Numbered from the stretch's first letter, positions 7,528-25,977 are shown. The stretch is 26,628 nucleotides of DNA from Spirochaetaceae bacterium (GCA_003566875.1 PXBQ01000192.1:1-26628); one strand, 5' to 3'. Notes: generated by a model from the letters alone, not told the origin. Numbers and translations are program-made.

Positions 7528-8169
7528 TTACCTGTCCGTGCCGCGGAGCCGCATTTTCACCGATAGCACCGCGTAACCCGATGAGAGGTCCTCTTTCTGC
7601 ACGACTACGCCGGGCGGAAGTTTCAACTTGACGTTCGTGAAATTCCAGATCGCCGTGATTCCGGCCTTAACGAGCAGATCGGCGACTGCCTGAGCGTGCG
7701 AGGACGGTACGGTGAGAATTGCCATCCGTACCGTGCTCTCTTTGACGATGTCGTGAATCCGTCCGAGCGGATACACGGGGGTTCCGTTAAGGTCTTTGCC
7801 GATCTTCTTTTCGTCGAGATCAAACGCGCCGACGAGGTTCATTCCCCTGCGGCGAAACTCACGGTATCCGAGCAACGCGGTGCCGAGATTACCCGCGCCG
7901 ACGAGAATCGCGTTGTGGTCGCGGTCCCAATGCAAAAACGTGTGGATAGCCTGGATCAACTGATCGACGGGAAACCCGAGTCGCGGTTTTCCGACGACGC
8001 CGGTCACGGCGAGGTCTTTGCGTACCTGGATTGGTTCGAGTTCCAACTCCTCGGCGATCACGGTGCCGGATATATACTCCTTGCCTTCCGCCTGCGCGTT
8101 TTCGACAAGGTGAAGGTACGATGGTAGACGCTTGATTGTCGGTAGGCTGGCCAAACGGGTGCTTTTCAT
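7528..8169 (-). CDS. rex: Redox-sensing transcriptional repressor Rex
   Basis: TIKRLPSY, winged-helix QVRKDL...G...G, Rossmann VGAGNLGTAL, GITAIWNFT; G-rich RBS upstream. Confidence 0.95.
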   Translation of the reverse strand: MKSTRLASLPTIKRLPSYLHLVENAQAEGKEYISGTVIAEELELEPIQVRKDLAVTGVVGKPRLGFPVDQLIQAIHTFLHWDRDHNAILVGAGNLGTALLGYREFRRRGMNLVGAFDLDEKKIGKDLNGTPVYPLGRIHDIVKESTVRMAILTVPSSHAQAVADLLVKAGITAIWNFTNVKLKLPPGVVVQKEDLSSGYAVLSVKMRLRGTDR

Positions 8170-8231
8170 CGTAGATCCCCCCGGTGAAACGGTCTCTTGA
8201 GCGTCATTGTGATCTGCATCGAGCCGAAGCG

Positions 8232-8237
8232 ATTATA
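8232..8237 (-). promoter_or_regulatory. Putative sigma70 -10 hexamer (TATAAT) for rex-rlmK
   Basis: Exact TATAAT on the minus strand about 60 nt upstream of the rex ATG; no good -35 at 16-18 nt. Confidence 0.4.
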
Positions 8238-8340
8238 CCGGATACTCGGACAAATTAATAGGTGTGAACGCGTGACTCAACGGAGTCTCTCGGTTCAAGG
8301 CAAAACACTACGGCTGTCGTGGTGCATCATGAGCGGGTAC

Positions 8341-8370
8341 TTGCGTACGCAACGGTCGGGGTTATACGAT
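8341..8370 (+). promoter_or_regulatory. Putative sigma70 promoter for the beta-propeller/HEAT gene
   Basis: TTGCGT(8341-8346)-N18-TACGAT(8365-8370), 7 nt before ATG 8378. Confidence 0.4.
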
Positions 8371-8377
8371 GGGGAGC

Positions 8378-9997
8378 ATGAACGTTGTTCGCGGCGGTCG
8401 TCGGACGATCATGTTATCGAGCGTGTTGCTCTTTTTTGTCGGCGGGATGTCCGCGACCGACGGAGCGCCGCCGATCTGGACGTTTGTCACCGGTGGGCGG
8501 ATAGTCGGCTCGCCGGTTGTGACCGAGACGGGGCGTGTGTACGCCGTTGCGGAAGATAGATATCTTTACGCGGTCGAACACGGTGTTGCGCGGTGGAGGT
8601 ACGATCTGCGCGTGCGACCGATCGGGCCGATTCGGGTGTCACCCGACGGAACGGTCGTCGTTCGGACCAGAGCCGATTCTTTAGTTGCTGTGAACCCCGG
8701 CGGCGGGACCGTGTGGGCCTACAGACACCGAACCGAGATTGGCTCATTTGAGCACGGCGGAGACGGGCAAGTCCTGCTCGGTGACTCCGCGGGTGTCGTC
8801 ACGGCGCTCTCTGCAACCGGGCGTGTCGTATACCGCGTCGCAATCGGCGATTCTCCGGTCACGGCGATCGTCCGCGGTTCCGGTTACCACGTGTACGCGG
8901 CGACGCGAGACGGCAGACTCGCGGCCATTACAGACGGCGGAGCTCGCGTCTTCAGGCGGCTGTTCGAGGCGCGGATCGAAGCCATGGCGAGCACGGCAGA
9001 CCGCGTCGTTGTTTTTTTGTCCGACGGGCGTCTCATCGCCGTCGACACGTTTGGGCGGGAGGCGTGGACAATCGGTGTTCCCGAGGCTGCGCGGCGGCTT
9101 GGCGTCGCCGGTGTACATATCGCGCTCATTTCTGACGAGGCCGTTTGGTTTTTTGACGATTCGGGGACCACGGTCGGCAGCGATCGATTTGACGGGCTCG
9201 GCGATACTGTGATCGCGGGAGACGGTGTGTTCGTTGCGGCGGGAAACGCCGTGTACTCTGTTCGAGCGTCACAACCACGCGCGCCGGTCGCCCGCTTTTC
9301 TTCGGGCGTCGGGGCGATCGGCGCGGGCGGCGGTCGTGTCGCCGTCGGTACGGACGACTGGGTTCTTTCATCGTTCGGAAATGCGCACGCAACTGCGCGT
9401 CCAGGCGGTGTGCGCGTCCCGTACTGGCGCACGTCGTACGATTATCTGTTTCTCAAGGACCAGATATCGGCGGGAACCGATCAGGCCGTACGCGCGACGC
9501 GCGAGATGATTTCGCGCGTGGACCGTGCTGATCTCGCGGGCAGTTATCACGCGATACGCGAGCTATTGATCGAGGTCGCGACGCCACGGACACCGCGGAC
9601 CGGACGCGCGATTCCTCCTGACGTACGTAGCGCGGCGGTCCGGGCGCTTGGACGCGTAGGAGACGTCGTCGTCCGGGATTTTCTCGCGCGCGCCGTCGCG
9701 GCGGAGACCGACCCGTTCGTCATGGTCGCAATCTTTGATGCTTTTACCGATACCGGTATTGCGGCCCCGGAGCCTGTACTCGAAATCGCGGCGCGGTATC
9801 TCTCGAACGCGCGTGGGGGCGAGCTTTCGGGAGAAATCGCGCGCGCCGCGGTGGATCTCGTGATCGCGTCGCACAGATACGCGGGGTATGTCCCCGAAGT
9901 AGGAGTGGGATTGCTTCGACGCGCGATGGAGGCACCGTTTCCGCGCGAAATCCGAGAATACGCGCTGACGGCCGCCCGACAAATAGACGGGCGATAG
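8378..9997 (+). CDS. Exported PQQ-like/BamB-type beta-propeller protein with a C-terminal HEAT-like helical domain
   Basis: Signal-peptide-like N-terminus; repeated blades (WTFVTGGRIVGSPVV, GRVYAVAEDRYLYAV...G..RWRY, VYAATRDGRLAAI); C-terminal VRSAAVRALGRVG and AAETDPFV HEAT-like motifs. Start could be 8369, 8378 or 8411. Confidence 0.7.
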   Translation: MNVVRGGRRTIMLSSVLLFFVGGMSATDGAPPIWTFVTGGRIVGSPVVTETGRVYAVAEDRYLYAVEHGVARWRYDLRVRPIGPIRVSPDGTVVVRTRADSLVAVNPGGGTVWAYRHRTEIGSFEHGGDGQVLLGDSAGVVTALSATGRVVYRVAIGDSPVTAIVRGSGYHVYAATRDGRLAAITDGGARVFRRLFEARIEAMASTADRVVVFLSDGRLIAVDTFGREAWTIGVPEAARRLGVAGVHIALISDEAVWFFDDSGTTVGSDRFDGLGDTVIAGDGVFVAAGNAVYSVRASQPRAPVARFSSGVGAIGAGGGRVAVGTDDWVLSSFGNAHATARPGGVRVPYWRTSYDYLFLKDQISAGTDQAVRATREMISRVDRADLAGSYHAIRELLIEVATPRTPRTGRAIPPDVRSAAVRALGRVGDVVVRDFLARAVAAETDPFVMVAIFDAFTDTGIAAPEPVLEIAARYLSNARGGELSGEIARAAVDLVIASHRYAGYVPEVGVGLLRRAMEAPFPREIREYALTAARQIDGR

Positions 9998-11648: not shown

Positions 11649-13214
11649 ATGTCGCACTTCTCGGGCCGAACGATCCAGGTAGTTCGGGACCTGTCGGTCG
11701 ACGAACAGGTATATCTCTACGACGTCACACGCCGCTTGAAAACGAAACTCACCACGGGCGAACGAACCGACGAGTTTCGGATAGGAAACCACGACCTCGG
11801 CGTTTACCTTTTTTTTCTTGAGGATTCGACGCGGACGAAAGAGTCTTTTCGCAACGCGGCGAAATTCCACGGTGCGCGTGTCAATGACTTTACGGTCGCC
11901 GGCTCATCGATCAACAAGAGAGAAAGCATTACCGACACCGTGAAAATGCTTGTCGGTTACTCCGAACAATCGGTCTTCATCGTACGGACCAAACTCGAGG
12001 GTACATGTCGATGGCTCGAGGCCGCGCTTTCCGAGTACGCCACGTCAAAAGGAATGCCTGTACCCGTATTCATTAACGCCGGCGACGGACGACACGAACA
12101 CCCAACCCAGGAATTTCTCGACGAATTTAGTTTTCTGGAACACGTGTCGTGGGATCGGTCGCATCTGCATCTCGCGCTCGTCGGTGATCTCTTTCACGGG
12201 AGGACCGTCCACTCGAAGGTCGACGGGTTACGTATCTTCCGCGAAGTGGAGCTCGATCTCGTGGCCCCGCCGGACCTTGAGATGCCTCGACACTACATTG
12301 AGACGATGAAGCGTGCCGGGTTCGAAGTCAGGACGTTCGGTTCGATCACGGAGTATCTTGCCTCCGGCCGCCCGGCGTCGGCGTGGTACTTCACGCGGCT
12401 ACAGCTCGAACGGATGGGCGACAGACTGCTCGAGAAGGCCGATCAGCTTCGCGATGCCGTCACGTTCAAGCAAGCGGACATGGCGCGGGTGCCGGAGGGC
12501 ACGCGGTTTTTCCATCCGCTTCCGCGGCACTCGGTGACACCGACTATACCGTCGTTTCTCGACTCGACGCCGCTTAACGGATGGGATGAACAGTCGATCA
12601 ACGGCTACTTCACGCGGATAGTGGAAATCGGGCTTGTCGCAGGGCACCTCGGCGATGACTTTTCAGGTGAATCGCGGCTCAAGCTTAGTTTCAGCGACGA
12701 CTTTGTCGAAAGCGCTCCCGTGAGTGTCGGGAAGAAGCCCGAGTATAAAGTGGGGATTCGACCGGTCGAGAGCGGAATAGTTATCGACCACATCGGGCGC
12801 GGGAAAAACCCACACGAAATTTGGGTTCAGATCGACAAGGTACGACGGATCCTCGCGCTAAACTGCATCAGTTCGCACGGGGTATACACGTCGCTGCGAA
12901 CTGGCGCGCATAAAGGCATGATTTCGCTTCCGGACCACAACGGTTTTGACGGCCGCGAGATCAAAATGCTCGCCGCGATCGCGCCCGGGTGTTCGGTAAA
13001 CCACGTTGTTGACGGCAAAGTAGCGAGGAAGTTCCGGCTTCACATCCCGCCACGCGTGTACAATCTCGATGAGATCTGTTGCCGAAACGAGGAGCGTATT
13101 TCCCATCCGGCGCATCACGAGCCGATAACAGCGGAGTTCTATCGCGCGGACACCGAGATATTTACGTGCAAGTATTGCGAACGACCACACGAGTTTCACG
13201 AGATCTGGAAGTGA
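11649..13214 (+). CDS. pyrBI: Bifunctional aspartate carbamoyltransferase, catalytic and regulatory chains fused (PyrBI)
   Basis: Catalytic motifs FLEDSTRT, HPTQ, GDLFHGRTVHS, HPLP; C-terminal PyrI-like domain (GIVIDHI, CKYCE). This fusion is known from Treponema denticola and Thermotoga maritima. Confidence 0.93.
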   Translation: MSHFSGRTIQVVRDLSVDEQVYLYDVTRRLKTKLTTGERTDEFRIGNHDLGVYLFFLEDSTRTKESFRNAAKFHGARVNDFTVAGSSINKRESITDTVKMLVGYSEQSVFIVRTKLEGTCRWLEAALSEYATSKGMPVPVFINAGDGRHEHPTQEFLDEFSFLEHVSWDRSHLHLALVGDLFHGRTVHSKVDGLRIFREVELDLVAPPDLEMPRHYIETMKRAGFEVRTFGSITEYLASGRPASAWYFTRLQLERMGDRLLEKADQLRDAVTFKQADMARVPEGTRFFHPLPRHSVTPTIPSFLDSTPLNGWDEQSINGYFTRIVEIGLVAGHLGDDFSGESRLKLSFSDDFVESAPVSVGKKPEYKVGIRPVESGIVIDHIGRGKNPHEIWVQIDKVRRILALNCISSHGVYTSLRTGAHKGMISLPDHNGFDGREIKMLAAIAPGCSVNHVVDGKVARKFRLHIPPRVYNLDEICCRNEERISHPAHHEPITAEFYRADTEIFTCKYCERPHEFHEIWK

Positions 13215-13235: not shown

Positions 13236-13661
13236 TCACGCGGGCTTGGGCCGGATCTTTTTCTTTCGGCGTGTCCGTCGTCGGAAAATCTTCCTGAAAA
13301 ATGCCCTTATCGCCGCGAGAATTTTCTTGAAAAACCCCGGGTTTTTCATTTTGTCGAGTTTCATGTACGCCTCGGCGAGTTCGTCCGTCGTGAGCTCTTT
13401 GCGATGGATGTTCTCGTCGAGCTCCATCTCGAGTTTCTCGGCGTCGTCGTCGCGATCGACGACCCGCCCGGGGACGGAGCTCCAGCCGAGCCGTCGAACG
13501 GCTTCAAGCCGGCGATGCCCTGCGATCAGCTCGTTCTTGCCGTTAATTACGATAGGGTTCATCAAGCCGAACGATTCGATGCTTCTCATAAGTGGACCGA
13601 TATCGCCAAGACTCTTGCGGATCCGCTTCCGGATGATGATTGAGTTGATTTCGACTTGCAC
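13236..13661 (-). CDS. Small ParB N-terminal (CTPase-type) domain protein with an amphipathic/basic C-terminal tail
   Basis: SIESFGLMNPI, LIAGHRRLEA (GxxR arginine patch), ENIHR (ENLQR-like); no HTH region; GTG start with GGAGG 9 nt upstream. Confidence 0.85.
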   Translation of the reverse strand: MQVEINSIIIRKRIRKSLGDIGPLMRSIESFGLMNPIVINGKNELIAGHRRLEAVRRLGWSSVPGRVVDRDDDAEKLEMELDENIHRKELTTDELAEAYMKLDKMKNPGFFKKILAAIRAFFRKIFRRRTRRKKKIRPKPA

Positions 13662-13682
13662 GGCGCATGGCCTCCACGCGGC

Positions 13683-13691
13683 ATAGTATCA
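13683..13691 (-). promoter_or_regulatory. Putative extended -10 promoter (TGnTACTAT) for the ParB-like gene
   Basis: Minus strand reads TGATACTAT, about 20 nt upstream of the start and just before the GGAGG RBS. Confidence 0.5.
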
Positions 13692-13731: not shown

Positions 13732-16284
13732 CTAATCGAGTAAGGGATTTCCTCCGGATGCGGGTAAATCGCCGTTGAGGTCGAAGTCGTTGCCGTACCC
13801 AGGGAACCGTAAATCTATATCGAAGTCGAGATCAACCGAGAGATCGCTCTGTGGCCGAGGGCCGCCGAATGCGTTGACCGTGAGGCTTGTCCCTGCTATC
13901 GCGTCGCGCATTCGATCGGCGAACACCGGGGTCCAATCGCGCTCAAATTCCTGAAGAGTATCGAACTGCGTCGGTTCGGTTCCCGAGATGAACACTCGTT
14001 CGACCGTGCGTCCGGTGTAGTTTTCGGGTGGAAGCAGGCCTGTACGCGCGCTCACGCGTACTGTGGTTAAACCGTCGTTCGGCTTCGGGAACGCGACACG
14101 GTCGCGCCCTTCATGGATCTCGCGCATGTACTGAACCCACATCGGCGCAACGGCGGCCGCGCCGGTCTGGTTTGTGCCGAGAGAATTATTGCCGCCACGG
14201 TCAAAACCGAACCACACCGCGGTCGTAACGTACGGTGAGTAACCGACCGACCACGCGTCCGACCAGTTTTGCGTCGACCCGGTCTTTCCCGCCATCGGCA
14301 TATCGTCGAAACCGCCACCGCGTGCGCGTGCTCCGGCCATTGTACCGACCTCAAACGTCGCCTTCATCATCTCGGTCATCACGTACGCTGCTTGCGGCGA
14401 GATCACCTGTGTCTCACGCCCGCGCCTCTGTTGCGCCAACCGGATTTCCTGCTCAGGTTCCAGAATCACGCGGCCGTCACGATCTTCGATGTACCGGACG
14501 GCAATCGGGACGACCTCACGACCGAGATTCGCGATCGTAGCGTATCCGCGGGCCATCTCCATCGGCGAAACCGAGACCGTTCCGAGGCCGACCGGAAAGT
14601 TTCGCACGAAGCCCCGCGAGGCGAGGCTCGACTCCGGGATGCCCATCAAGCGGCTCGCGACTCGGAACGCATCGGTGAACCCGACGCGGTCGAGGACCCG
14701 AAGCGACGGAATGTTATACGACGCGGCGAGAGAAGTCGTCAGGTCGACCCATCCCCACCAGCGTCCGAAGTAGTTGTTTGGTGTGTACGGGGTCCCGTCG
14801 TCGTTCCAGAACACGACCGGTGCGTCGTAGAACGTCGTCGCCGATGTGACCACCTGTTTGTCGATTCCGGCAGCGTAGTACATCGGTTTGAACGCGCTAC
14901 CCGGTAACACGCGCGCGTCGACCGCACGATTGAGCTGGTTACGCGCCTCGAAACCGGAACCGCCGATCAGAGCCAGGATATGTCCCGTGGAATTGTCGAG
15001 TGTCACGAGGCCACCCTCGACCCGCGTTCTTTGCGCCTCACGTTCGGTTCGTGTGTACGATACGCGCGCGACATGACGAAGCTCATCGTTCTCGGATGAT
15101 CCGAACAGAAGCGATACCATGTCGATTACAGGGTTAATCTGGCGCTGGTAGTGTTCGAGGGTGCGTGAACGTTCTTTTGCGTCGCCGACGCGAAGCTCAG
15201 GAATATCGAATAGAAGAGCCGAAAGCTCGATCGCGGGTATGAGCTTGTCGCCGGCCGAAATACTTACGCTCCGGTTTTGTTCGTAGATTCTGTTGGAAGT
15301 CTCGAGCGACGCAGCCATGTGACGATCGGCTGCCCTCTGATAGTCGAGGTCCAGCGTCGTATGAACGGTGAACCCGTCACGGTTGACGTTAGCACGACCG
15401 AAAAGATACTCGTTCTCGAGCTGGAATCGCACGAACTCGCTGAAGTACCGTGCACGATCCTCGCGGTCGAAAAATGCCGTGGAGACATTTGAGCGCGTGA
15501 AGTCGTAGTTGTTCCAGTAATCGTCAAACGAGAAGTCGACCTCTTCCTGGGTGGCAAATCCCATCGTTACCATATCGTTCAAGACGACTCTCTGCATTAC
15601 GCGAGCCTGGTTTGGACGGCGAATAGGAGAGTATAACGACGGATTCGCCAGCTGGATAACGAGAATCGCCGACTCGGCGTGCGTCAAGTCACGCGCGGAA
15701 CGCCCGAAGTAAAACTGTGATGCCGACTCGACGCCGTAGTTACCGTGTCCAAACGGCATTTTGTTGAGATACTCTTCGAGAATCTCATACTTCGTCAGCC
15801 GCTTTTCGAGCTGCAATGCCCACCATAACTCGCGGAGCTTCCGGACTAATGAAAACTCGGTACGGTCGGCGTACAAGTGTCCCGCGAGTTGTTGCGTAAT
15901 TGTGCTTCCGCCCGATACATACCTTCCGCGTAAAAGATTCCACGCGGCTCGAGCGGTTCCGCGGAAACTGAAACCATGATGATGGAAAAAAGTGCGGTCT
16001 TCTCGCGTGATCAGCGCGTTTATCAAGTGTCTCGGCAACTCGTCGATCGGGACGAGCTCACGCCTTTCGTCACCGAAGAATTGAGTGATCTCGCGTCCCG
16101 TCCGGTCGAGGATGATCGTCGGCAACGCGTTAAAGGTTTCTCCGCGCTGCACGGTATCGAGATGTTCGGTGTTTCGGATACCCGCGAGCGCCAAACCGGT
16201 AACGACGCCGAAAACGATTGCGGATACGGCGGTCACGATCAGCAAAACCATGACGAGTACGCCTTTCCGTCCTGCAAAACCCAT
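13732..16284 (-). CDS. mrcA: Class A penicillin-binding protein (PBP1A family, transglycosylase/transpeptidase)
   Basis: N-terminal TM helix; glycosyltransferase motifs EDRTFFHHHG, GGSTITQQLA, RKLRE, EYLN; transpeptidase motifs SAFK, SYN, KTG all intact. Confidence 0.95.
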   Translation of the reverse strand: MGFAGRKGVLVMVLLIVTAVSAIVFGVVTGLALAGIRNTEHLDTVQRGETFNALPTIILDRTGREITQFFGDERRELVPIDELPRHLINALITREDRTFFHHHGFSFRGTARAAWNLLRGRYVSGGSTITQQLAGHLYADRTEFSLVRKLRELWWALQLEKRLTKYEILEEYLNKMPFGHGNYGVESASQFYFGRSARDLTHAESAILVIQLANPSLYSPIRRPNQARVMQRVVLNDMVTMGFATQEEVDFSFDDYWNNYDFTRSNVSTAFFDREDRARYFSEFVRFQLENEYLFGRANVNRDGFTVHTTLDLDYQRAADRHMAASLETSNRIYEQNRSVSISAGDKLIPAIELSALLFDIPELRVGDAKERSRTLEHYQRQINPVIDMVSLLFGSSENDELRHVARVSYTRTEREAQRTRVEGGLVTLDNSTGHILALIGGSGFEARNQLNRAVDARVLPGSAFKPMYYAAGIDKQVVTSATTFYDAPVVFWNDDGTPYTPNNYFGRWWGWVDLTTSLAASYNIPSLRVLDRVGFTDAFRVASRLMGIPESSLASRGFVRNFPVGLGTVSVSPMEMARGYATIANLGREVVPIAVRYIEDRDGRVILEPEQEIRLAQQRRGRETQVISPQAAYVMTEMMKATFEVGTMAGARARGGGFDDMPMAGKTGSTQNWSDAWSVGYSPYVTTAVWFGFDRGGNNSLGTNQTGAAAVAPMWVQYMREIHEGRDRVAFPKPNDGLTTVRVSARTGLLPPENYTGRTVERVFISGTEPTQFDTLQEFERDWTPVFADRMRDAIAGTSLTVNAFGGPRPQSDLSVDLDFDIDLRFPGYGNDFDLNGDLPASGGNPLLD

Positions 16285-16380: not shown

Positions 16381-16409
16381 AAAAAAAAAGCCGGCTCTTT
16401 CGAACCGGC
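16381..16409 (-). terminator. Intrinsic terminator ending the mla-TPR-M23-PEGA transcript
   Basis: Minus strand GCCGGUUC-GAAA-GAGCCGGC (8-bp stem with one G-U pair, GNRA loop) followed by nine U. Confidence 0.9.
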
Positions 16410-16480
16410 CCAACCGTTAGGTTATCGGCACCAATATAGTAAACTGGGAGGGGAACTATATTAAATGACCGACGGTTTTA
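16381..16480 (-). ncRNA. Candidate structured small RNA or 3'-UTR element with a C-rich loop
   Basis: Rod-like hairpin (AACCGU/ACGGUU outer stem, AAUAUAGU/ACUAUAUU inner stem, loop UCCCCUCCCAGUUU) abutting the terminator. No known family recognised. Confidence 0.35.
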
Positions 16481-16504: not shown

Positions 16505-17500
16505 TTAGTCTTCATTTACCAAAACGTCCAACGTCAACGAGACGTTGTACGTGCGGTTCGGTTCCACACGGATTCTTCGCGTGACCGAAAAATCACCTAC
16601 GCGAAACATGACCGTATGCTCACCCGGCCGGAGCATAATCTCGCGTGAAGTCGCATCGACGATTTCACCGTTCACAAATAATGTCGTCCCGCGCGGCGCA
16701 GATATTAACACTTTTGCGTGTGGATGTTCCAATTGCACGACATGTTTTTTCGTGACTCCACGTTCGACTCCGATACTCGCAGAATACTCACGATACGTCT
16801 CGGACTGCAGGCCCAAACGTTTGACCCCGGGAACCAAGACGATGCCGTCCGGATCAAAGACCACTTCGCGGCCGTCGATCGTTACGGTGTGCTGCCCGAG
16901 TGACTCGCGCTCGAGTGTCGTGCCTTCCGGGCTCAGCAGTTCCAACACGACGGCGCCTTCGTTGCGGAAGATCGGCCTGATGCGGACGGGGAACTCCGCG
17001 TCGCGCGCGGAGTCCGGCATACCTTTTGAAACTGGAATAATCGTAACGGCGAACGGACTACCGTCGTACTCCATCATCGGTTCGGCGACGATCGTATCCG
17101 CGGTCGCGCGGACGGAGTGATCGAGGCGCAGCGGAAGCGAAAACACGACCCGACGGGCGTTCTGCGCGACGTGAGAAGCTGCCGAACGCGCGTCGCGCGC
17201 CATCGGTGGATCGTCGTCCGAGATCGTGACGTTCGAGAACACCGCGAGCGAAATCGGTAGCAACAAAGTCCGGATAGAGTCGGGGATCGTTATTTCGAAC
17301 TCGAGCGCGTCGACAAAACGCGGTGTCGCGTCGAACGAAGCGATTCCGATTTCGCCCATCGTCAATACGAACGCAACTTCGCTGCCGGATTCCAGTGGTA
17401 CGGTGTGGCGCTCGGTTACCGGCCCCCACAGGGTCTCCGCGGGTAACAGCCCGGCTATGAAGATACATGAAACGGCGGCGATCATCCTGCGAAACATCAA
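16505..17500 (-). CDS. Exported PEGA-domain protein
   Basis: Signal peptide; C-terminal PEGA-like repeats (ISAPRGTTLFVNGE, LRPGEHTVMFRVGDF); ATGA overlap with the M23 gene stop. Confidence 0.75.
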   Translation of the reverse strand: MMFRRMIAAVSCIFIAGLLPAETLWGPVTERHTVPLESGSEVAFVLTMGEIGIASFDATPRFVDALEFEITIPDSIRTLLLPISLAVFSNVTISDDDPPMARDARSAASHVAQNARRVVFSLPLRLDHSVRATADTIVAEPMMEYDGSPFAVTIIPVSKGMPDSARDAEFPVRIRPIFRNEGAVVLELLSPEGTTLERESLGQHTVTIDGREVVFDPDGIVLVPGVKRLGLQSETYREYSASIGVERGVTKKHVVQLEHPHAKVLISAPRGTTLFVNGEIVDATSREIMLRPGEHTVMFRVGDFSVTRRIRVEPNRTYNVSLTLDVLVNED

Positions 17501-18390
17501 TTCCTCCGCGGAAGCACCGACAGCGGGTCCCGCGATGTTCCGTGGACCCGCACTTCGAAGTGGAGGTGTGGTCCGGTCGAAATTCCGGTACTGCCGACTC
17601 TCCCGATAATCATACCCGATGTAACGCGGGCGTTCAACTCCACGAGTGCTTCGGAAAGGTGGCCGTAGAACGTGGTGTATCCCGCCTCATGCTCGATGAT
17701 GATGTAAAGGCCAAACAGTCGGTCGTCGCCCGACTCGATCACCCGACCGTCCCGCGCGGCGTACACGTCGGCGCCATCGGGCGCGGAGATGTCGACACCG
17801 TGGTGAAAACTGCGTAGCCCCGTGAAAGGATCAAATCTGAAACCGTACCGTGACGTGATACGCCCGGACGGCAAAGGATCGCGAAAGAGGGCGTCGAGAA
17901 ACGCGCGGCGCTCTATCGCCGAAAAATCCTCGCCGCGCACGTACCGGAACGAAATCGGTTGATCTCGTACGGTCACGGAAATGAGATCGCCGTGGTCCGG
18001 ATTACGCTCACTCGCGATGATACGTTCGAGATCGTTGACGGGTGTTTGCGCGACGAAAATCCCGGGTGCCGTCGGTATCACGAGTTCGCCGACATCGGGA
18101 GGTATCTGTGTTCCCGTGAGGCGATTCACGGTCGCGATCGTACTATAGGGAAGTAGAAACCGAGCGGAGACCGTAAGTACCGTGTCCCCCGGCCGTATCT
18201 CGTATCGATACATCGTCAGTGGGGGTGGATCGTCGCCGCGTCGGACGGCCATGTGAAACTGTTCGACGTTCTGAACGACCTGCAAAAAAAGCGGATCCGA
18301 ACGGTCGGGCCTTTCGATCAAAGGATAACGCGCTTGAGAGTGTGCCGAAGCGACAAGGATCAACCCAAAAACAAAGAATGGTACGCGCAT
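17497..18390 (-). CDS. LysM-M23 family peptidoglycan metallo-endopeptidase
   Basis: Signal peptide; LysM-like YEIRPGDTVLTVSARF; M23 motifs GRITSRYGFRFDPF, HHGVD (HxxxD), YGHL, STGPHLHFE (HxH). Confidence 0.92.
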   Translation of the reverse strand: MRVPFFVFGLILVASAHSQARYPLIERPDRSDPLFLQVVQNVEQFHMAVRRGDDPPPLTMYRYEIRPGDTVLTVSARFLLPYSTIATVNRLTGTQIPPDVGELVIPTAPGIFVAQTPVNDLERIIASERNPDHGDLISVTVRDQPISFRYVRGEDFSAIERRAFLDALFRDPLPSGRITSRYGFRFDPFTGLRSFHHGVDISAPDGADVYAARDGRVIESGDDRLFGLYIIIEHEAGYTTFYGHLSEALVELNARVTSGMIIGRVGSTGISTGPHLHFEVRVHGTSRDPLSVLPRRN

Positions 18391-18464
18391 CGGTTTCTAA
18401 GGTCGGTCTCCATCTGTCGCACCGTGGCGAAGAGCGAGCCGCGCGGCGGCAAAGACTCCCTCGC

Positions 18465-19451
18465 TCACCGCTGCGACCCTGTGCTGGGACTCATCCGGAG
18501 CTCGACCGTTTCACGGCGCGTGGCGTACGCACGCGCGTCTTCCTCCCGTCCCATCGACACGGCGTTTTCCTCGAGCGCGGAGAGAGCGCGGATTACTTCC
18601 GGGACGACGCCCAACGTAAGGTAGATGTCGAACGCTCGTGTGTAGTACTCGTGCGCGGCATCAAAGCGCGTTCGTCGACGTTCGATGCTGCCCAACGCAA
18701 AGAGGTCCTGCGCGATGCCGAGCGGATTCTCGATCATCTTGTCGCGCTCGAGCGCCTGGTACGCGAGATCATACGCCTCATCGAATAATCCGCGTCGAGA
18801 GTACACGGACGCCAACATGTAGAGGTTGGCGGCGACTTCCCCGTGGATGCGACGCTGTTCGTTGATGGCCAACGCTTTGCGGAGGTATTCTTCGGCAACG
18901 TCGTATCGTCCGAGACGGCCGTGAGCCGCACCGACATTGTGGTACAGGATAGCCGCGACGGGGGTCGTATGGTGCGGTCCGACAAGTTCGATCGCTTCGG
19001 AAAAAAAAGCGAGAGCGCGTTCGGTGTCTCCACGGCGTAAAGCGAGGTCGCCGAGATTGCTCTTGCCTTCAATCAACGTTTCGATCATGCGATCTGCGGT
19101 ATCGACCGTGGTGCCCGCGGTACCGCGTTCAGCGATCTTGACGGCACGTTGAAACTGGGCCTCGGCCGTCGAGAGATCCCCGGTAGCGACGTAGACCTTC
19201 CCGATTGCGTTCAATGCGCGCGCAACACCATTTTGGTCGTCAACCGAGATGCTCAGGCCTAACGCGTTCTCGTACAGCGATAGCGCTTGTTCGTACTCGG
19301 CTCGGACGGCGTACGTTGTGCCGTAGCGGATAAACTCCGCAGCCTGATTCCTCGTCGTAACAACTTCGTCGGATCCGCCTCGGAGCGACGAACACCCGAG
19401 GAGCAGAAAAAAACTCACCGCGACCGCGGTCAAAGCTGTTTTCACCGTCAC
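18465..19451 (-). CDS. Tetratricopeptide-repeat lipoprotein
   Basis: Lipobox LLG-C20; about six or seven TPR units (e.g. ARALNAIGKVY, AAILYHNVGAAHGRLGRYDVAEEYLRKAL, AQDLFALGSI); start abuts the mlaD stop. Confidence 0.88.
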   Translation of the reverse strand: MTVKTALTAVAVSFFLLLGCSSLRGGSDEVVTTRNQAAEFIRYGTTYAVRAEYEQALSLYENALGLSISVDDQNGVARALNAIGKVYVATGDLSTAEAQFQRAVKIAERGTAGTTVDTADRMIETLIEGKSNLGDLALRRGDTERALAFFSEAIELVGPHHTTPVAAILYHNVGAAHGRLGRYDVAEEYLRKALAINEQRRIHGEVAANLYMLASVYSRRGLFDEAYDLAYQALERDKMIENPLGIAQDLFALGSIERRRTRFDAAHEYYTRAFDIYLTLGVVPEVIRALSALEENAVSMGREEDARAYATRRETVELRMSPSTGSQR

Positions 19452-20531
19452 CTAAAACTCCGGATCGCGGAAGCCACCGAACGTTGCCGGGGGTTCGAGC
19501 TGCGTGGAAATGCCGCCGCGGATCAAGGGGTTGTTGCTCAAACCTTCGAGCACGTCCTTCCCGGTTGCGAGCGTGCGTCGGCCTTCCTCGAGAATGCCTG
19601 TCAGTTGTGGTGTCGTTCGATTCATGAACTGCGCAAGGTCGGCCAGCTCCATCGTGACATCCGAAAGGTCGGACAGCAAGCCGTCGATGCGATCGAACAG
19701 AACTTCATCGTCGTCGAGGATCTTCGCGATCGAGCCGCTCGGATCGAGCAATCTCGGAACGATGCCGGTCGGATCGGCGATCGCGTCGGAAGCGAGCGCA
19801 ACGTTTTTTGCAATTTCCTCGATATACACCAGGATCCCGTCGGCCTGCGTGACGGTGTTCCTGATCGTTCGTTCGAGCTCCTCGATGATCGCGTCGACCC
19901 CAATGAAGAGTTCGGCTATCGGCCCGTCTCGGCTCGAACCGTCGAGCGTCGCGTTAACGATTTGTAGAGTTTGGGTCGCTTCGGCGACCGCGATATCGAG
20001 GGTAGCGGTCAGCGTCGTCACGTTCTCGAGTATCGGGTCGATCTGGTCAAGAAGGCGCGTGATCTGGTCTTCCTGCCGAGGCAGAACGACGAGATCGTCG
20101 GCAATCAGTTGACGCGCTTCGACCGAATCGAGCGACGGGATGACCGAGTACTCTTCGGGCGGAGCCGACGGGTACCTTCCTTGATGGAAGACAAGTCCAC
20201 CTCCGAGCCCGAGCGGATTCGAGATTAACTGGATCACCGAGTTTTCGCGAACGGTGTCGATGTACCGGTCCTGAACGTGAAAAATGATCTCGACATCGTT
20301 CTCGGCGGTAAGCTCCATTTTTTCAAGTCTTCCGATCTGGAAACCTTTGAACGTGATCGGCATTCCGATGCTGAGGCCCGACGCGGAAGAGAATAAGCTC
20401 CGGTAGTAGTAGTTTCGCGCGAACCACCGTTGGTTTGCGCCGACCGTGACGAGAATCGCGATGAACGAAAGCATACCGACGATCACGAAGACGCCGACGA
20501 TCTGGTACGCGAACCGGATTCTGAATTTCAT
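19452..20531 (-). CDS. mlaD: MCE/MlaD-family protein with a long helical C-terminal extension
   Basis: N-terminal TM, single MCE domain (FSSASGLSIGMPITFKGFQIGRL), then about 200 aa of heptad-like helix ending NNPLIRGG. Confidence 0.87.
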   Translation of the reverse strand: MKFRIRFAYQIVGVFVIVGMLSFIAILVTVGANQRWFARNYYYRSLFSSASGLSIGMPITFKGFQIGRLEKMELTAENDVEIIFHVQDRYIDTVRENSVIQLISNPLGLGGGLVFHQGRYPSAPPEEYSVIPSLDSVEARQLIADDLVVLPRQEDQITRLLDQIDPILENVTTLTATLDIAVAEATQTLQIVNATLDGSSRDGPIAELFIGVDAIIEELERTIRNTVTQADGILVYIEEIAKNVALASDAIADPTGIVPRLLDPSGSIAKILDDDEVLFDRIDGLLSDLSDVTMELADLAQFMNRTTPQLTGILEEGRRTLATGKDVLEGLSNNPLIRGGISTQLEPPATFGGFRDPEF

Positions 20532-20566
20532 CTCGGTTCACAGTCTAGTTGAGGAACGCTCGTTCG

Positions 20567-21361
20567 TCAATCGAGCGTGTCGCTTCCGAGCAAGTCGAGT
20601 ACGTCACCCGCGTACGTGGCAGTCTCGCTGAGTACATCTGACAGAATCGCGGCAACGGCTTGATCCTCCGATCGGACGATATCGTTGAACGGTCCAAACG
20701 CAAGAATACGGCCCTCGCTCATAACGACGAGGTTATCGGCGCATTGCGACGCGAACTGCGCGTTGTGCGTCGCTCCGATTATCGTGGTCGACGTACTCTT
20801 GAGGTGTTTCACCACGCGGAGCACGTTGCCGACCGTTTGCGCGTCGAGAAAAGTGGTCGGTTCATCGAGAAAAAGCAGACGAGGAGTTGCCGAGAGCGCC
20901 CGGATGAATGAAACGAGCTTGATTTGGCCACCGGACAGCTGGGACGGACGGTTGCGTAGGTCGCCCGTGAAGCTGAGCTGATGAGTTAGTTCCGAAATGC
21001 GCGTTGCGATCTCGGTGTGCGTCATCGTGGGATAGTGGAACGATATGGGAAGTGCAATGTTGTCGTAAATCGACATGTTCTGCCATAATGCACCGCTCTG
21101 AAAAACGAAACCGGAGTACTTGCGGAACTCGAGTAGCGTTCGATGGTTGAGCATCGCGAGATCGCGATCGTCGACGAACACCGTACCGGTGTCCGGCGGG
21201 ATTATCCCGCACGCGACACGCAGGAGTGTGCTCTTCCCGCAGCCGGACGGCCCCATTATCAATGTTGTGGCGTTTTCGGGGAACTCGACCGATACGTCCG
21301 AGAGAACTTGAGTTTCTCCGAGCGATGCCGAGACGTTTTCCAGTCGGATCGTTGTGTTCAT
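20567..21361 (-). CDS. mlaF: MlaF/Mkl-type ABC ATPase
   Basis: Walker A GPSGCGKS, GFVFQSGALW, LSGGQ, Walker B LFLDEPT, H-loop ATHN; lies between mlaE and mlaD. Confidence 0.87.
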   Translation of the reverse strand: MNTTIRLENVSASLGETQVLSDVSVEFPENATTLIMGPSGCGKSTLLRVACGIIPPDTGTVFVDDRDLAMLNHRTLLEFRKYSGFVFQSGALWQNMSIYDNIALPISFHYPTMTHTEIATRISELTHQLSFTGDLRNRPSQLSGGQIKLVSFIRALSATPRLLFLDEPTTFLDAQTVGNVLRVVKHLKSTSTTIIGATHNAQFASQCADNLVVMSEGRILAFGPFNDIVRSEDQAVAAILSDVLSETATYAGDVLDLLGSDTLD

Positions 21362-21370
21362 CTCGGCGTC

Positions 21371-22165
21371 TCACAGGTAGTATGCGATCGTCAACACGGC
21401 ATTGACGAGCATAAGGATCGTGACGTTGTACCCAACCGATCGAATCGTCATCTGAGGGATCTCGGTCTGTGCGCTCTCAACCTTGAATCCGAAGTACGTC
21501 GCCACCGTCGCGATCACCGCACCGAAAGCGATGCTCTTTACGATCGACGCGAAGATATCGACCATATTCAACACACCCAGTAGTCCCGAGAAGTACTCAC
21601 CGAAACCTATGGGGCGAACGAACTGCGTCACGACGAACGAACCGAGTAAACCGAACACGTTGAAGTAAACGTTCAGTACGACCAGTGACACCGTAACGCC
21701 GACAAAACGCGGCACGACTAGATACGAGATCGGATCGATCCCGGTAGCGATGAATGCGTCGATCTCGTGGTTCGCCACCATCGTACCAAGCTCGGTCGTT
21801 ATCGCGGTGCCCGAACGCGCCGCGACGATGAATGCGGTCAGGATCGGGCCGAGCTCGCGCGTGATCACCGCGATCAGGATCGTGTAGATCAGCGCGCCTT
21901 GCCCAAACTGCGGGAGGATAGACAACCCTTGAACCACGATGATCGCTCCGAGTCCCAACGAAAGCGTCGCGATGATCGTGAGCGCCTCGACGCCCGTGAA
22001 CAGGATCTGGAACACCAGCACACGAAACCCGGCATTCTTGCGACGGAAGAAAAAAACGGTCTCTTTCAGAACTGCCGCAAAAAAACCCATCGCGTACAAG
22101 AATCCGGTGATCCTTCCGACCGTCGTTCTGCCGATTCTTTCGAGTGCTTCGCCTGCTCGTGCCAC
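21371..22165 (-). CDS. mlaE: MlaE-family ABC permease
   Basis: RELGPILTAFIVAARSGTAITTELGTM, EIDAF..TGIDP..YLVVPR. Start reassigned from 22249 to GTG 22165, giving 264 aa and placing it just after a sigma70 promoter. Confidence 0.9.
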   Translation of the reverse strand: MARAGEALERIGRTTVGRITGFLYAMGFFAAVLKETVFFFRRKNAGFRVLVFQILFTGVEALTIIATLSLGLGAIIVVQGLSILPQFGQGALIYTILIAVITRELGPILTAFIVAARSGTAITTELGTMVANHEIDAFIATGIDPISYLVVPRFVGVTVSLVVLNVYFNVFGLLGSFVVTQFVRPIGFGEYFSGLLGVLNMVDIFASIVKSIAFGAVIATVATYFGFKVESAQTEIPQMTIRSVGYNVTILMLVNAVLTIAYYL

Positions 22166-22170
22166 GACGC

Positions 22171-22199
22171 ATTTTACGCGATTCGCGACGAAACGACAA
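22171..22199 (-). promoter_or_regulatory. Sigma70 promoter for the mla operon
   Basis: TTGTCG(22199-22194)-N17-TAAAAT(22176-22171). Confidence 0.65.
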
Positions 22200-22337
22200 C
22201 AAAGCGCCGGCCGGTTCGGCGGAACCCGGATCGGCGGATAACTCACCAAAAAACTGATCGTCGGCCCAAACCGGACCGATACTGGAAAAAGGAAACACCA
22301 AGAGCGTCTTTCCGAATTTACAGTCGCGTGACGTCGC

Positions 22338-24124: not shown

Positions 24125-24196
24125 AGCCAGAACGCGGATTCGAACCGCGGACCTGCTCATTACGAGTGAGCTGCTCTACCACTGAGCTATCCTGGC
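24125..24196 (-). tRNA. tRNA-Thr (anticodon CGT), CCA not encoded
   Basis: GCCAGGA TA GCTC AGTGGTA GAGC A GCTCA CT-CGT-AA TGAGC AGGTC CGCGG TTCGAAT CCGCG TTCTGGC T; all four stems pair. Confidence 0.97.
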
Positions 24197-24215
24197 GATT
24201 TTCTTACGAGGCCGG

Positions 24216-24244
24216 AGTATAGATCATATCCCGAAAAATGGAAA
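24216..24244 (-). promoter_or_regulatory. Sigma70 promoter for tRNA-Thr
   Basis: TTTCCA(24244-24239)-N17-TATACT(24221-24216), 20 nt upstream of the tRNA. Confidence 0.6.
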
Positions 24245-24251
24245 TACCCTC

Positions 24252-24279
24252 TCACGAGAATCCGTCGGTTCTCCGATAA
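24252..24279 (+). promoter_or_regulatory. Putative sigma28 (FliA) promoter for flgF-flgG-flgJ
   Basis: TCAC(24252-24255)-N16-TCCGATAA(24272-24279) against the consensus TAAA-N15/16-GCCGATAA; -10 matches 7/8, -35 is weak. Confidence 0.4.
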
Positions 24280-24306
24280 ATAAGTAAGTAGTGTGGGGAG
24301 GGAACC

Positions 24307-25170
24307 GTGGTTCGGGGAATGTACACAGCTGCAAGCGGCATGACCGCGCAGCAACACCGGCTTGACGCGTTGACGAACAACCTGGCCAACGTCGACACGA
24401 CCGGTTTCAAACGCGACCAGGCCGTGTATAAGGCTTTTCCGGAGCTTCTGCTTCGCAGGATGAGCGACGACGGCGTCCTGCGCATTCCGTATCGAGCGCA
24501 GATGCCGTGGGGTTCGATCGACAAGGCACCGGTGGTCGGCCGCCTTGGAACGGGTGTGGAACTCAACGAGATATACACGATTTTCGAGCAAGGCAGCTTC
24601 AAGGAGTCCGGTAACCCGTTCGACCTCGCTCTCGAGGGGCGAGGTTTTTTCGTCGTCGAGACACCGAACGGAGAAAGATTGACGCGTAACGGGAGTTTCC
24701 ACGTCGACCCGTCCGGATACCTTGTGACGAAAGACGGTTTCCCGGTTCTCGGCGAAGAAGGGCCGATTCGTGTGACGATGAACAACTTCGTCGTCGACGA
24801 GGACGGACGCGTTTTTGCGAACGATGTATACCGAGACCCGGACCGACTGGTTTCGATGATCGAGAACCAATGGGAAGAGACGATCGAACTCGACCGGCTT
24901 CGGTTGGTCGAAGTGCCGAACGATCGGTATCTCGAGAAACAAGGTTCGAGCCTGTGGCGGACCACGTGGGACTCGGGCGACGCGGAGATCGCCGCAGAGG
25001 GCTTTCGACCCCGCGTTCATCAGGGTTTTCTCGAGACCGCAAACGTGAATCCGGTCACCGAAATGGTGGAGATGATCGAGGTGAACCGGGCGTACGAAGC
25101 GAATCAGAAGGTTATTCAAACGCAGGATGCGACGACCGGCAAGTTGATCAACGAAGTCTTGCGAATGTAG
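24307..25170 (+). CDS. flgF: Flagellar rod protein FlgF/FlhO-type (hook-basal body protein)
   Basis: MVRGMYTAASGM, NNLANVDTTGFKRD, DLALEGRGFF, TRNGSF, GFLETANVNPVTEMVEMI; first of a tandem rod-gene pair. Confidence 0.87.
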   Translation: MVRGMYTAASGMTAQQHRLDALTNNLANVDTTGFKRDQAVYKAFPELLLRRMSDDGVLRIPYRAQMPWGSIDKAPVVGRLGTGVELNEIYTIFEQGSFKESGNPFDLALEGRGFFVVETPNGERLTRNGSFHVDPSGYLVTKDGFPVLGEEGPIRVTMNNFVVDEDGRVFANDVYRDPDRLVSMIENQWEETIELDRLRLVEVPNDRYLEKQGSSLWRTTWDSGDAEIAAEGFRPRVHQGFLETANVNPVTEMVEMIEVNRAYEANQKVIQTQDATTGKLINEVLRM

Positions 25171-25182
25171 TGAGGTAGAAAA

Positions 25183-25977
25183 ATGGTACGTTCCCTTTGG
25201 ACCGCAGCGGCCGGCATGAATGGACAGCAGTTCAATATCGACACGATCGCGAATAATCTCTCTAACGTGAACACGACCGGTTTCAAGAAAAACCGACCCG
25301 ATTTTGAGGATCTCTTGTACCAGACCGTCCGGACCGCCGGCACCCCGGCGACCGAGAACACCTTGGTTCCGGTCGGAGAACAGTTTGGTCACGGTGTTCG
25401 CGTCGCGGCGACGCAGAAGATTTTCACGCAAGGATCGCTTCAAAACACCGATGTCGTCAGCGACATCGCGATCGAGGGCGAAGGATTCTTTCGCGTCTTG
25501 ACGTACGACGGCTCGTTTGCGTACACACGCGACGGTGCGTTCAAGATCGACTCGAATGGTCAGTTCGTCACGTCGAAAGGGTATCGTGTTGTCCCGGATA
25601 TCATTATGCCCGAGGGCTTCATACGCGAATCGATCGCGATCTCGGCCGACGGGCGCGTCTCGGTGAACCTTCCGGGGATCGACGATCCGATCGACGTCGC
25701 TCAAATCGAAGTCTACCGATTCGTGAACCCGGCAGGTTTGACCGCCGTCGGTGAGAACCTCTTCAAGGTCACGTCTGCGTCGGGCGATCCGATCGCCGGG
25801 CAACCGGGGTTCGACGGGATGGGCCGGCTTCTGCACAAATTTATCGAAATGAGCAATGTTGAAGCGGTAAACGAGATGGTAAACATGATTGTCGCGCAAA
25901 GAGCGTACGAGATGAGTTCAAAGGCGATTCAGACCTCGGACACGATGCTGGGAATCGCGGCAAATCTCAAACGATAA
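25183..25977 (+). CDS. flgG: Flagellar distal rod protein FlgG
   Basis: MVRSLWTAAAGM, IANNLSNVNTTGFKKNR..FEDLLYQ, TRDGAFKIDSNGQ, YRFVNPAGL, EMSNVEAVNEMVNMIVAQRAYE. Confidence 0.96.
   Translation: MVRSLWTAAAGMNGQQFNIDTIANNLSNVNTTGFKKNRPDFEDLLYQTVRTAGTPATENTLVPVGEQFGHGVRVAATQKIFTQGSLQNTDVVSDIAIEGEGFFRVLTYDGSFAYTRDGAFKIDSNGQFVTSKGYRVVPDIIMPEGFIRESIAISADGRVSVNLPGIDDPIDVAQIEVYRFVNPAGLTAVGENLFKVTSASGDPIAGQPGFDGMGRLLHKFIEMSNVEAVNEMVNMIVAQRAYEMSSKAIQTSDTMLGIAANLKR

Follow-up and report, generated by a model that had tools for sequence, protein, structure and literature searches.

A minimal ParB-fold protein with a predicted membrane-binding C-terminal helix, encoded behind PBP1A in the class Spirochaetia

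To our knowledge, the CTP switches of the ParB fold that are known all act on or through DNA, as do ParB, Noc, KorB, and VirB, or on a cytoskeletal scaffold, as does PadC. Noc has been described as linking the binding of CTP to attachment to the membrane through an amphipathic helix. In Caulobacter ParB, residues R60, S74, G79, R103, R104, N136, and R139 form class I, in which mutation abolishes CTP binding; of these, S74 and G79 contact the cytosine, which they are said to select, and R60 contacts phosphate (PMC8367383). Mutation of E135 stops hydrolysis, and Q58 and E102 are the proposed catalytic residues (PMC8367383). The N-domains of ParB dimerise through this nucleotide pocket, and PadC, which differs at the positions of Q58 and E102, binds CTP without noticeable CTPase activity (PMC8367383). 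In a 2025 survey of the ParB-CTPase fold, short forms with a single domain came mainly from phages and archaea, and there is no mention of the family described here.

The window analysed is a 26,628 nucleotide stretch of DNA from a Spirochaetaceae bacterium, whose genome is a MAG of 80% completeness. On the minus strand it carries a short gene, here called mini-ParB, with the following features.

13236..13661, minus strand: mini-ParB coding sequence, 141 amino acids and a stop codon, with a GTG start, at the start position (M-Q-x-x-I) shared by its homologues
13671..13675, minus strand: ribosome-binding site GGAGG, 9 nt before the start codon, read directly
13344..13661, minus strand: ParB/Srx N-terminal domain and the two helices after it (residues 1-106), from Pfam, NCBIfam, AF2, and Foldseek
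13281..13340, minus strand: cationic amphipathic C-terminal helix (residues 108-127), a predicted in-plane membrane anchor, from AF2, muH, and the family profile
13239..13283, minus strand: Arg/Lys-rich C-terminal tail (residues 127-141), of varying length and sequence among homologues

The sole Pfam domain is ParB_N (PF02195), which matches residues 19-86 with an E-value of 2.5e-9 and a score of 37.5 bits, above the cut-off of 26.3. The best NCBIfam models are those for Noc and ParB, both far under their full-length cut-offs (for Noc, 60 bits against 315), and Noc is also the best match in the sequences of the PDB (7NFU and 7NG0, 2e-12), where CTP- and CDP-bound ParB structures and PadC are among the top matches. 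An AF2 model built from a 50-sequence alignment has a mean pLDDT of 81, with the N-domain above 90 and the helices 73-87, 92-106, and 108-127 at around 70. When this model was compared with known structures by Foldseek, Noc (7NFU) ranked first, followed by PadC, the nucleotide-bound ParB of M. xanthus, Caulobacter, and B. subtilis, and then KorB, with a probability of 1.00 to Noc, ParB, and PadC; a serine kinase and sulfiredoxin match weakly.

The architecture is therefore largely that of the original prediction, in that a ParB N-domain with its arginine patch (GHRR, 13509-13520) and ENIHR motif (13401-13415) is followed by an amphipathic helix (PGFFKK...) and then by an Arg/Lys run, except that the one short helix proposed to precede the amphipathic helix is modelled as two (73-87 and 92-106). 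Neither a helix-turn-helix (HTH) nor a C-terminal dimerisation domain is found by Pfam or AF2 in the 141 residues, as had been proposed, and there would be no room for an HTH because the reading frame stops 22 nt from a convergent pyrB-pyrI gene. The N-terminal ParA-activating peptide is likewise absent, the domain beginning at residue 1. A domain search of the window ORFs identified no ParA-type gene, in agreement with the claim that parA is not near.

A perfect 21 nt palindrome (TGAAAAACCCCGGGTTTTTCA, 13328-13348) lies within the coding sequence at the junction between domain and tail, where it encodes K-N-P-G-F-F; it was scored as terminator-like on the plus strand. A 146 aa ORF antisense to mini-ParB (13246-13686, plus strand) is a shadow frame and not a separate gene.

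Of the described proteins, Noc (Bacillus and Geobacillus; 7NFU, 7NG0, 7OL9) is the best match in both sequence and structure and has the same ParB-type N-domain with Boxes I, II, and III. It differs in that its helix is N-terminal, where that of mini-ParB is C-terminal, and in having an NBS-binding HTH and a C-terminal dimerisation domain, and it serves to bring DNA to the membrane, whereas mini-ParB has no DNA-binding domain and an N-domain of another ParB_N lineage. The canonical ParB/Spo0J clamps (Caulobacter 6T1F and 7BM8; B. subtilis 6SDK) share the fold and are identical at all seven CTP-binding positions, but mini-ParB lacks their ParA-stimulating peptide, HTH, C-terminal dimerisation domain, parS role, and parAB operon. 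PadC (Myxococcus xanthus; 6RYK) is a good match in fold and is similar in having a ParB-like domain that does not clamp DNA and in the replacement of the residues at the Q58 and E102 positions. In PadC, however, a separate domain provides the anchor to bactofilin and the protein recruits ParA, while mini-ParB has a membrane helix and no link to ParA is seen.

The nucleotide pocket of the family was placed against the ParB of the same genome, on which MAFFT and hhalign agree. The roles of the residues were read from the mutagenesis study of Caulobacter ParB (PMC8367383), and invariance was judged in 50 mini-ParB sequences spanning the phylum.

13617..13625, minus strand: R13-I-R15, both arginines invariant; R15 corresponds to Caulobacter R60, and R13 stands in place of Q58
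13554..13583, minus strand: Box I or C-motif, S27 ... G32-L-M-N-P36, with S27 and G32 invariant, corresponding to Caulobacter S74 and G79
13509..13520, minus strand: Box II, G48-H49-R50-R51, with G48, R50, and R51 invariant; R50 and R51 correspond to Caulobacter R103 and R104
13401..13415, minus strand: Box III, E83-N84-I-H-R87, with E83, N84, and R87 invariant, corresponding to Caulobacter E135, N136, and R139

In all 50 sequences, the counterparts of the seven Caulobacter residues that are essential for CTP binding are invariant, and the three boxes have the canonical spacing. Box III, which is often lost in orphan ParB folds according to the 2025 survey, is retained. The N-domain thus appears from these residues to keep the whole triphosphate and cytosine pocket of the ParB/Noc type, and it is likely that CTP is bound. 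The candidate catalytic residues, on the other hand, are not conserved. The Q58 position is occupied by the invariant arginine R13 in place of glutamine, and at the E102 position H49 is a histidine in most Spirochaetia and E, Y, F, A, R, or Q elsewhere, the Leptospira-like members retaining G-E-R-R. With both residues replaced, many members may hydrolyse the nucleotide slowly or not at all, and a hydrolysis-driven switch is less secure than a nucleotide binder.

The strongly amphipathic character proposed for the C-terminus is borne out. The helix formed by residues 108-127 has a muH of 0.75, a net charge of +6, and a HeliQuest-type D of 2.68, and the muH of the tail (0.69-0.75) compares with 0.26 +/- 0.13 in shuffles of the same residues, 0.12% of which reach the observed value. 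In 48 of the 50 family members no other 18-residue window of the protein is as amphipathic as the C-tail (median muH 0.71), and the family-averaged hydrophobicity profile has a 3.6-residue period with a muH of 0.65, a value reached by none of 10,000 permutations. The hydrophobic positions 110/111, 114/115, 118, 121/122, and 125/126 are conserved, as are the basic positions that separate them; F, W, I, and L are abundant on the hydrophobic face, which has R and K on its flanks. Conservation of the tail had been set beforehand as a test, and the helical pattern is indeed kept across the phylum.

In some orthologues, those of five cluster representatives and of five Treponema-like genomes, the protein runs on beyond the helix into two hydrophobic segments of at least 19 residues, which would be expected to form a transmembrane hairpin. 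All five of the Treponema-like examples are at the same locus, behind PBP1A. The added segments give independent support to a location at the membrane. That orthologues carry an added integral anchor is strong evidence for a role of the family at the membrane, and speaks against a tail that is a DNA-binding or coiled-coil element. The tail is therefore predicted, from its composition and periodicity, to be an amphipathic in-plane anchor of the MinD, FtsA, or Noc type. MinD and FtsA, which also carry a short cationic amphipathic C-terminal helix, have unrelated folds (Walker-type or actin-like ATPases), and the resemblance to them is functional only.

A word-indexed search returned 177 proteins of 128-169 aa, all with ParB_N only, and every one with a named source is spirochaetal. 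Scanning at the DNA level, with one genome per species, found 547 relatives, and when 1.84 billion representatives were searched exhaustively with a profile, 121 clusters had E <= 1e-30. The best E-values in 401 Spirochaetota genomes fall into two groups, with values of 1e-28 or lower where the family is present and of 1e-12 to 1e-18 where there is only a canonical ParB. On this basis the family is found in 57 of 75 genomes of the same class, in all 3 of the same order, and in roughly half of the 401, at least 149 of which score E <= 1e-32. It is present in Borrelia-like and Leptospira-like genomes, and was not found in the 401-genome search in a 1.1 Mb genome of the Treponema family, in the family f25, or in the genus g91. 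The lineages that carry it include important pathogens: Borrelia-like genomes (the Lyme disease genus), Leptospira-like genomes with LipL32, and oral Treponema-like genomes.

Since most of the 53 usable gene pairs are near saturation, dN/dS is quoted for the four closest only, where it is 0.03-0.12 over the whole gene and 0-0.34 in the tail. The mini-ParB gene is a real, conserved gene under purifying selection. One contig labelled as Anaerovoracaceae of the Firmicutes (L079) has M23 peptidase, PEGA, PBP1A, and mini-ParB genes in the spirochaete-type synteny; it is probably mis-binned and not a case from outside the phylum.

No paper on this family was found in a literature search, nor any characterised protein of this architecture, just as the original prediction had stated. 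The orthologues of Borrelia and Leptospira may be those with the locus tags BB0731 and LIC11351 / LA2638, tentatively assigned from gene order, and nothing was found in the literature under these tags. The AlphaFold DB clusters and the ESM Atlas have only generically named ParB/Srx entries for the family, and a preprint on Borrelia bactofilins has ParB and PadC in its methods and references only. A 'ParB-like nuclease' of T. denticola, TDE1162, which may or may not be a mini-ParB, is 85.8-fold up in a prtP mutant (PMC7586716).

The genome from which the window comes also has a canonical parA-parB pair on another contig (C327), the ParB of which carries QPR, GERR, ENIQR, and an HTH. It is 38% identical to mini-ParB over 98 residues. 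Outside the family, the nearest relatives of the N-domain are phage-borne ParB_N fusions, which score about 120 bits as against about 50-60 for canonical ParB or Noc. In a tree of 107 columns, which gives no order of the mini and long forms inside their clade, the chromosomal ParBs of spirochaetes split at 100/99 from a clade of all the mini forms and the longer proteins of the same type. The tree and the profile scores both set the resident ParBs apart, which means that mini-ParB did not arise by truncation of the resident parB. The phage-borne proteins share an R-x-R-x(3)-G-D start and the clade with the mini forms, but are fused to HTH/coiled-coil or DNA methyltransferase domains (N6_N4 or MT-A70) that bind or modify DNA, and have no amphipathic tail; the two that were looked up are in phage-like contigs. 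One long relative, P0233 (L168:8001-9164), is on a 154 kb phage-like contig with YonV/YonJ-like, PhoH, and Clp protease genes. Its gene yields the recorded protein only with Gln at TAG codons, which points to a phage with recoded stop codons.

The reading that is favoured here, with moderate confidence, is that mini-ParB is a nucleotide-gated peripheral membrane protein, the nucleotide probably being CTP, in which pairing of the N-domains doubles the number of anchors and which in the Spirochaetia has an output related to the envelope. It would be a small cytoplasmic protein, predicted to be soluble apart from the tail, with an N-domain of the ParB fold that binds nucleotide, most likely CTP. 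The C-terminal helix, with its Phe/Ile/Trp face and flanking Arg and Lys, would sit in the plane of the inner membrane. From the behaviour of ParB, Noc, and PadC, binding of the nucleotide would be expected to pair two N-domains; a fold of two copies as a homodimer, run without controls, scored 0.00 and speaks neither for nor against a dimer. In MinD, nucleotide-driven dimerisation raises the avidity for the membrane, and by the same analogy a mini-ParB dimer with two weak anchors would bind the membrane more strongly. In that way the protein could serve at the membrane as a switch or adaptor that is gated by nucleotide and needs no DNA. A family on bacterial chromosomes with the nucleotide module alone, and with a membrane anchor in place of DNA binding, would show that the ParB fold can serve as a stand-alone membrane switch.

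That there is no on/off cycle at all is unlikely, although it is the strongest of the alternatives. In this case, mini-ParB would be a constitutive adaptor like PadC, which binds CTP or another NTP stably, does not hydrolyse it, and presents a membrane-fixed docking surface to a ParA/MinD-type ATPase or an envelope protein. The two positions replaced in the family (Arg for Q58, His or a variable residue for E102) coincide with the two at which PadC differs, and PadC ranks among the best structural matches. The transmembrane-anchored orthologues would be on the membrane permanently, so that regulated membrane binding would not be essential in them. Against this, E83, the counterpart of the hydrolysis residue E135, is invariant, the Leptospira-like members have kept G-E-R-R, and there is no parA or minD beside mini-ParB in any locus examined.

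The gated-anchor reading takes CTP to be the probable nucleotide. In the 2025 survey some members of the fold bind ATP or GTP, including some methyltransferase fusions that bound ATP, and specificity was not predictable from sequence or from AlphaFold3; since the mini-ParB N-domain groups with the phage-type folds and not with the resident ParB, the nucleotide could differ from CTP. It is quite unlikely that the pocket serves a purpose other than CTP switching, either through binding ATP or GTP or because the protein is a small membrane-acting ParB/Srx enzyme with a kinase-, nuclease-, or sulfiredoxin-like activity. The ATP- and GTP-binding members are several and non-canonical, the closest longer relatives are phage-type fusions, and the serine kinase and sulfiredoxin structures are weaker matches to the fold, all of which would be in keeping with such a role. 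However, the cytosine-contacting Ser and Gly are invariant, as are the three boxes with their canonical spacing, and it is Noc and ParB, not the enzymes, that head the HMM and PDB matches. The catalytic Cys that sulfiredoxin requires (G-G-C-H-R) is absent from Box II, where the motif is A-G-H-R-R.

It is distinctly improbable that mini-ParB is a partner of the resident ParB, its N-domain engaging that of ParB in trans and so tethering the ParB-parS complex, and with it the origin, to the membrane, or else capping ParB and modulating closure of the clamp. Dimerisation of ParB N-domains is through the very pocket that mini-ParB retains without DNA binding of its own, and a canonical ParB was found in the genome of the window and in the five other mini-ParB genomes checked. 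The two domains nevertheless belong to different ParB_N lineages, given their 38% identity and the 100/99 separation of the clades, there is no synteny of mini-ParB with parAB in the loci examined, and many spirochaetes have a ParB and no mini-ParB.

Scarcely credible is the possibility, raised in part with the original prediction, that the gene is what is left of a phage or full-length ParB gene in decay, or that the tail binds nucleic acid and not the membrane: although longer relatives with the same type of N-domain exist and the tail is very basic, descent as a broken full-length ParB is rejected, being largely refuted by the retention across the phylum of syntenic forms of about 125-145 aa with intact frames in roughly half of the 401 spirochaete genomes and by a dN/dS well below 1, and the hydrophobic face of the helix is aromatic-rich and conserved, with transmembrane helices added in some orthologues.

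For the gated membrane protein that is favoured, the evidence of an envelope connection comes from the neighbourhood of the gene. The features 5' of mini-ParB in the window are as follows.

13732..16284, minus strand: class A penicillin-binding protein PBP1A (Pfam Transgly 4.4e-57, Transpeptidase 1.2e-25), 70 nt upstream of mini-ParB
16388..16411, minus strand: terminator-like hairpin with a T-run between the PEGA gene and PBP1A, from a consensus scan only

The minus-strand gene order in the window is MlaE, ABC ATPase, MlaD, a TPR protein, an M23/LysM peptidase, a PEGA protein, PBP1A, and mini-ParB. The hairpin may make a separate two-gene unit of PBP1A and mini-ParB, and the consensus scan found no terminator-like site between these two genes in the window. 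The genes from MlaE to PEGA form an envelope-themed run (16505-22249, minus strand), which is parted from PBP1A by this strong terminator-like hairpin.

In all 77 testable loci from named species genomes, PBP1A is directly upstream of mini-ParB on the same strand. The same is true of 33 of 37 further loci of the class (25/29 and 8/8), but of none of 30 loci from other classes, in two of which PBP1A is about 4.5 kb upstream with intervening genes. The gap between the two genes has a median of 33 nt and is under 120 nt in 103 of 111 cases, and within the class Spirochaetia the pair persists while the flanking genes vary. In a Borrelia-like genome, for example, the order is PBP1A, mini-ParB, pgi. 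One Treponema-like genus has an M23 peptidase, a 531 aa unknown protein, and mini-ParB in place of the pairing with PBP1A.

PBP1A and mini-ParB thus form a predicted operon at the level of the class, and this is not a property of the whole family. The conservation of the neighbourhood across spirochaetes, which had been proposed as a check, is tight in the class Spirochaetia and is absent from Leptospira-like genomes and other classes, which limits the link to PBP1A by lineage. Similarly, the suggestion that PBP1A is the regulated neighbour is consistent with the predicted operon in the class but cannot describe a general function, as other neighbours are present outside it, and regulation of PBP1A as the general role of the family is rejected on the grounds that the linkage stops at the class boundary.

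In many mini-ParB lineages co-transcription with the main peptidoglycan synthase is predicted and, since this is inside an envelope gene cluster, the output of mini-ParB in the class Spirochaetia probably concerns the cell envelope. A more specific version for this class, which is unlikely as it stands, is that a DNA-free, membrane-bound CTP switch controls where or when PBP1A builds peptidoglycan, such that the CTP state gates growth of the envelope. If true, this would be the first ParB-fold CTP switch to act on the cell envelope and not on DNA. PBP1A is a periplasmic enzyme with no more than about 8 residues in the cytoplasm ahead of its membrane helix, so that there would be only a small surface with which to make contact directly.

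Outside the class the neighbours are of other kinds. In Leptospira-like genomes a divergent metK is followed by mini-ParB and then by lipL32 or another gene. In one such locus mini-ParB (L117:7001-7399) is directly upstream, on the same strand, of lipL32 (7622-8440; Pfam Lipl32 3.6e-75), with metK divergent. At seven loci from six families outside the class Spirochaetia, a conserved lipoprotein-like protein of 620-690 aa with an HExxH motif comes after mini-ParB (L121:7399-9282, L122:5135-6988, L123:7408-9366, L129:4974-6956, L130:7406-9397, L131:4782-6860, and L154:6472-8415). Its gene begins 4-33 nt after mini-ParB, with an overlap in L121, and the protein carries a lipoprotein-like signal (...FFVSC). 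In Pfam nothing scores above cut-off for it, the matches to Peptidase_M1 being faint.

On the other side of mini-ParB in the window, the convergent gene (11649-13214, plus strand) encodes a 521 aa aspartate carbamoyltransferase (ATCase) in which the catalytic chain (OTCace_N/OTCace) is fused to the regulatory chain (PyrI, PyrI_C). About half of the related loci have this pyrB-pyrI fusion in the same place. CTP is a classic regulator of ATCase, but the orientation of the gene and its patchy synteny suggest that its presence beside mini-ParB is a coincidence. Further along the window, a 570 aa ORF without a Pfam match (24187-25899, minus strand) overlaps a clear FlgG-type rod gene (25183-25974, plus strand) and is probably spurious.
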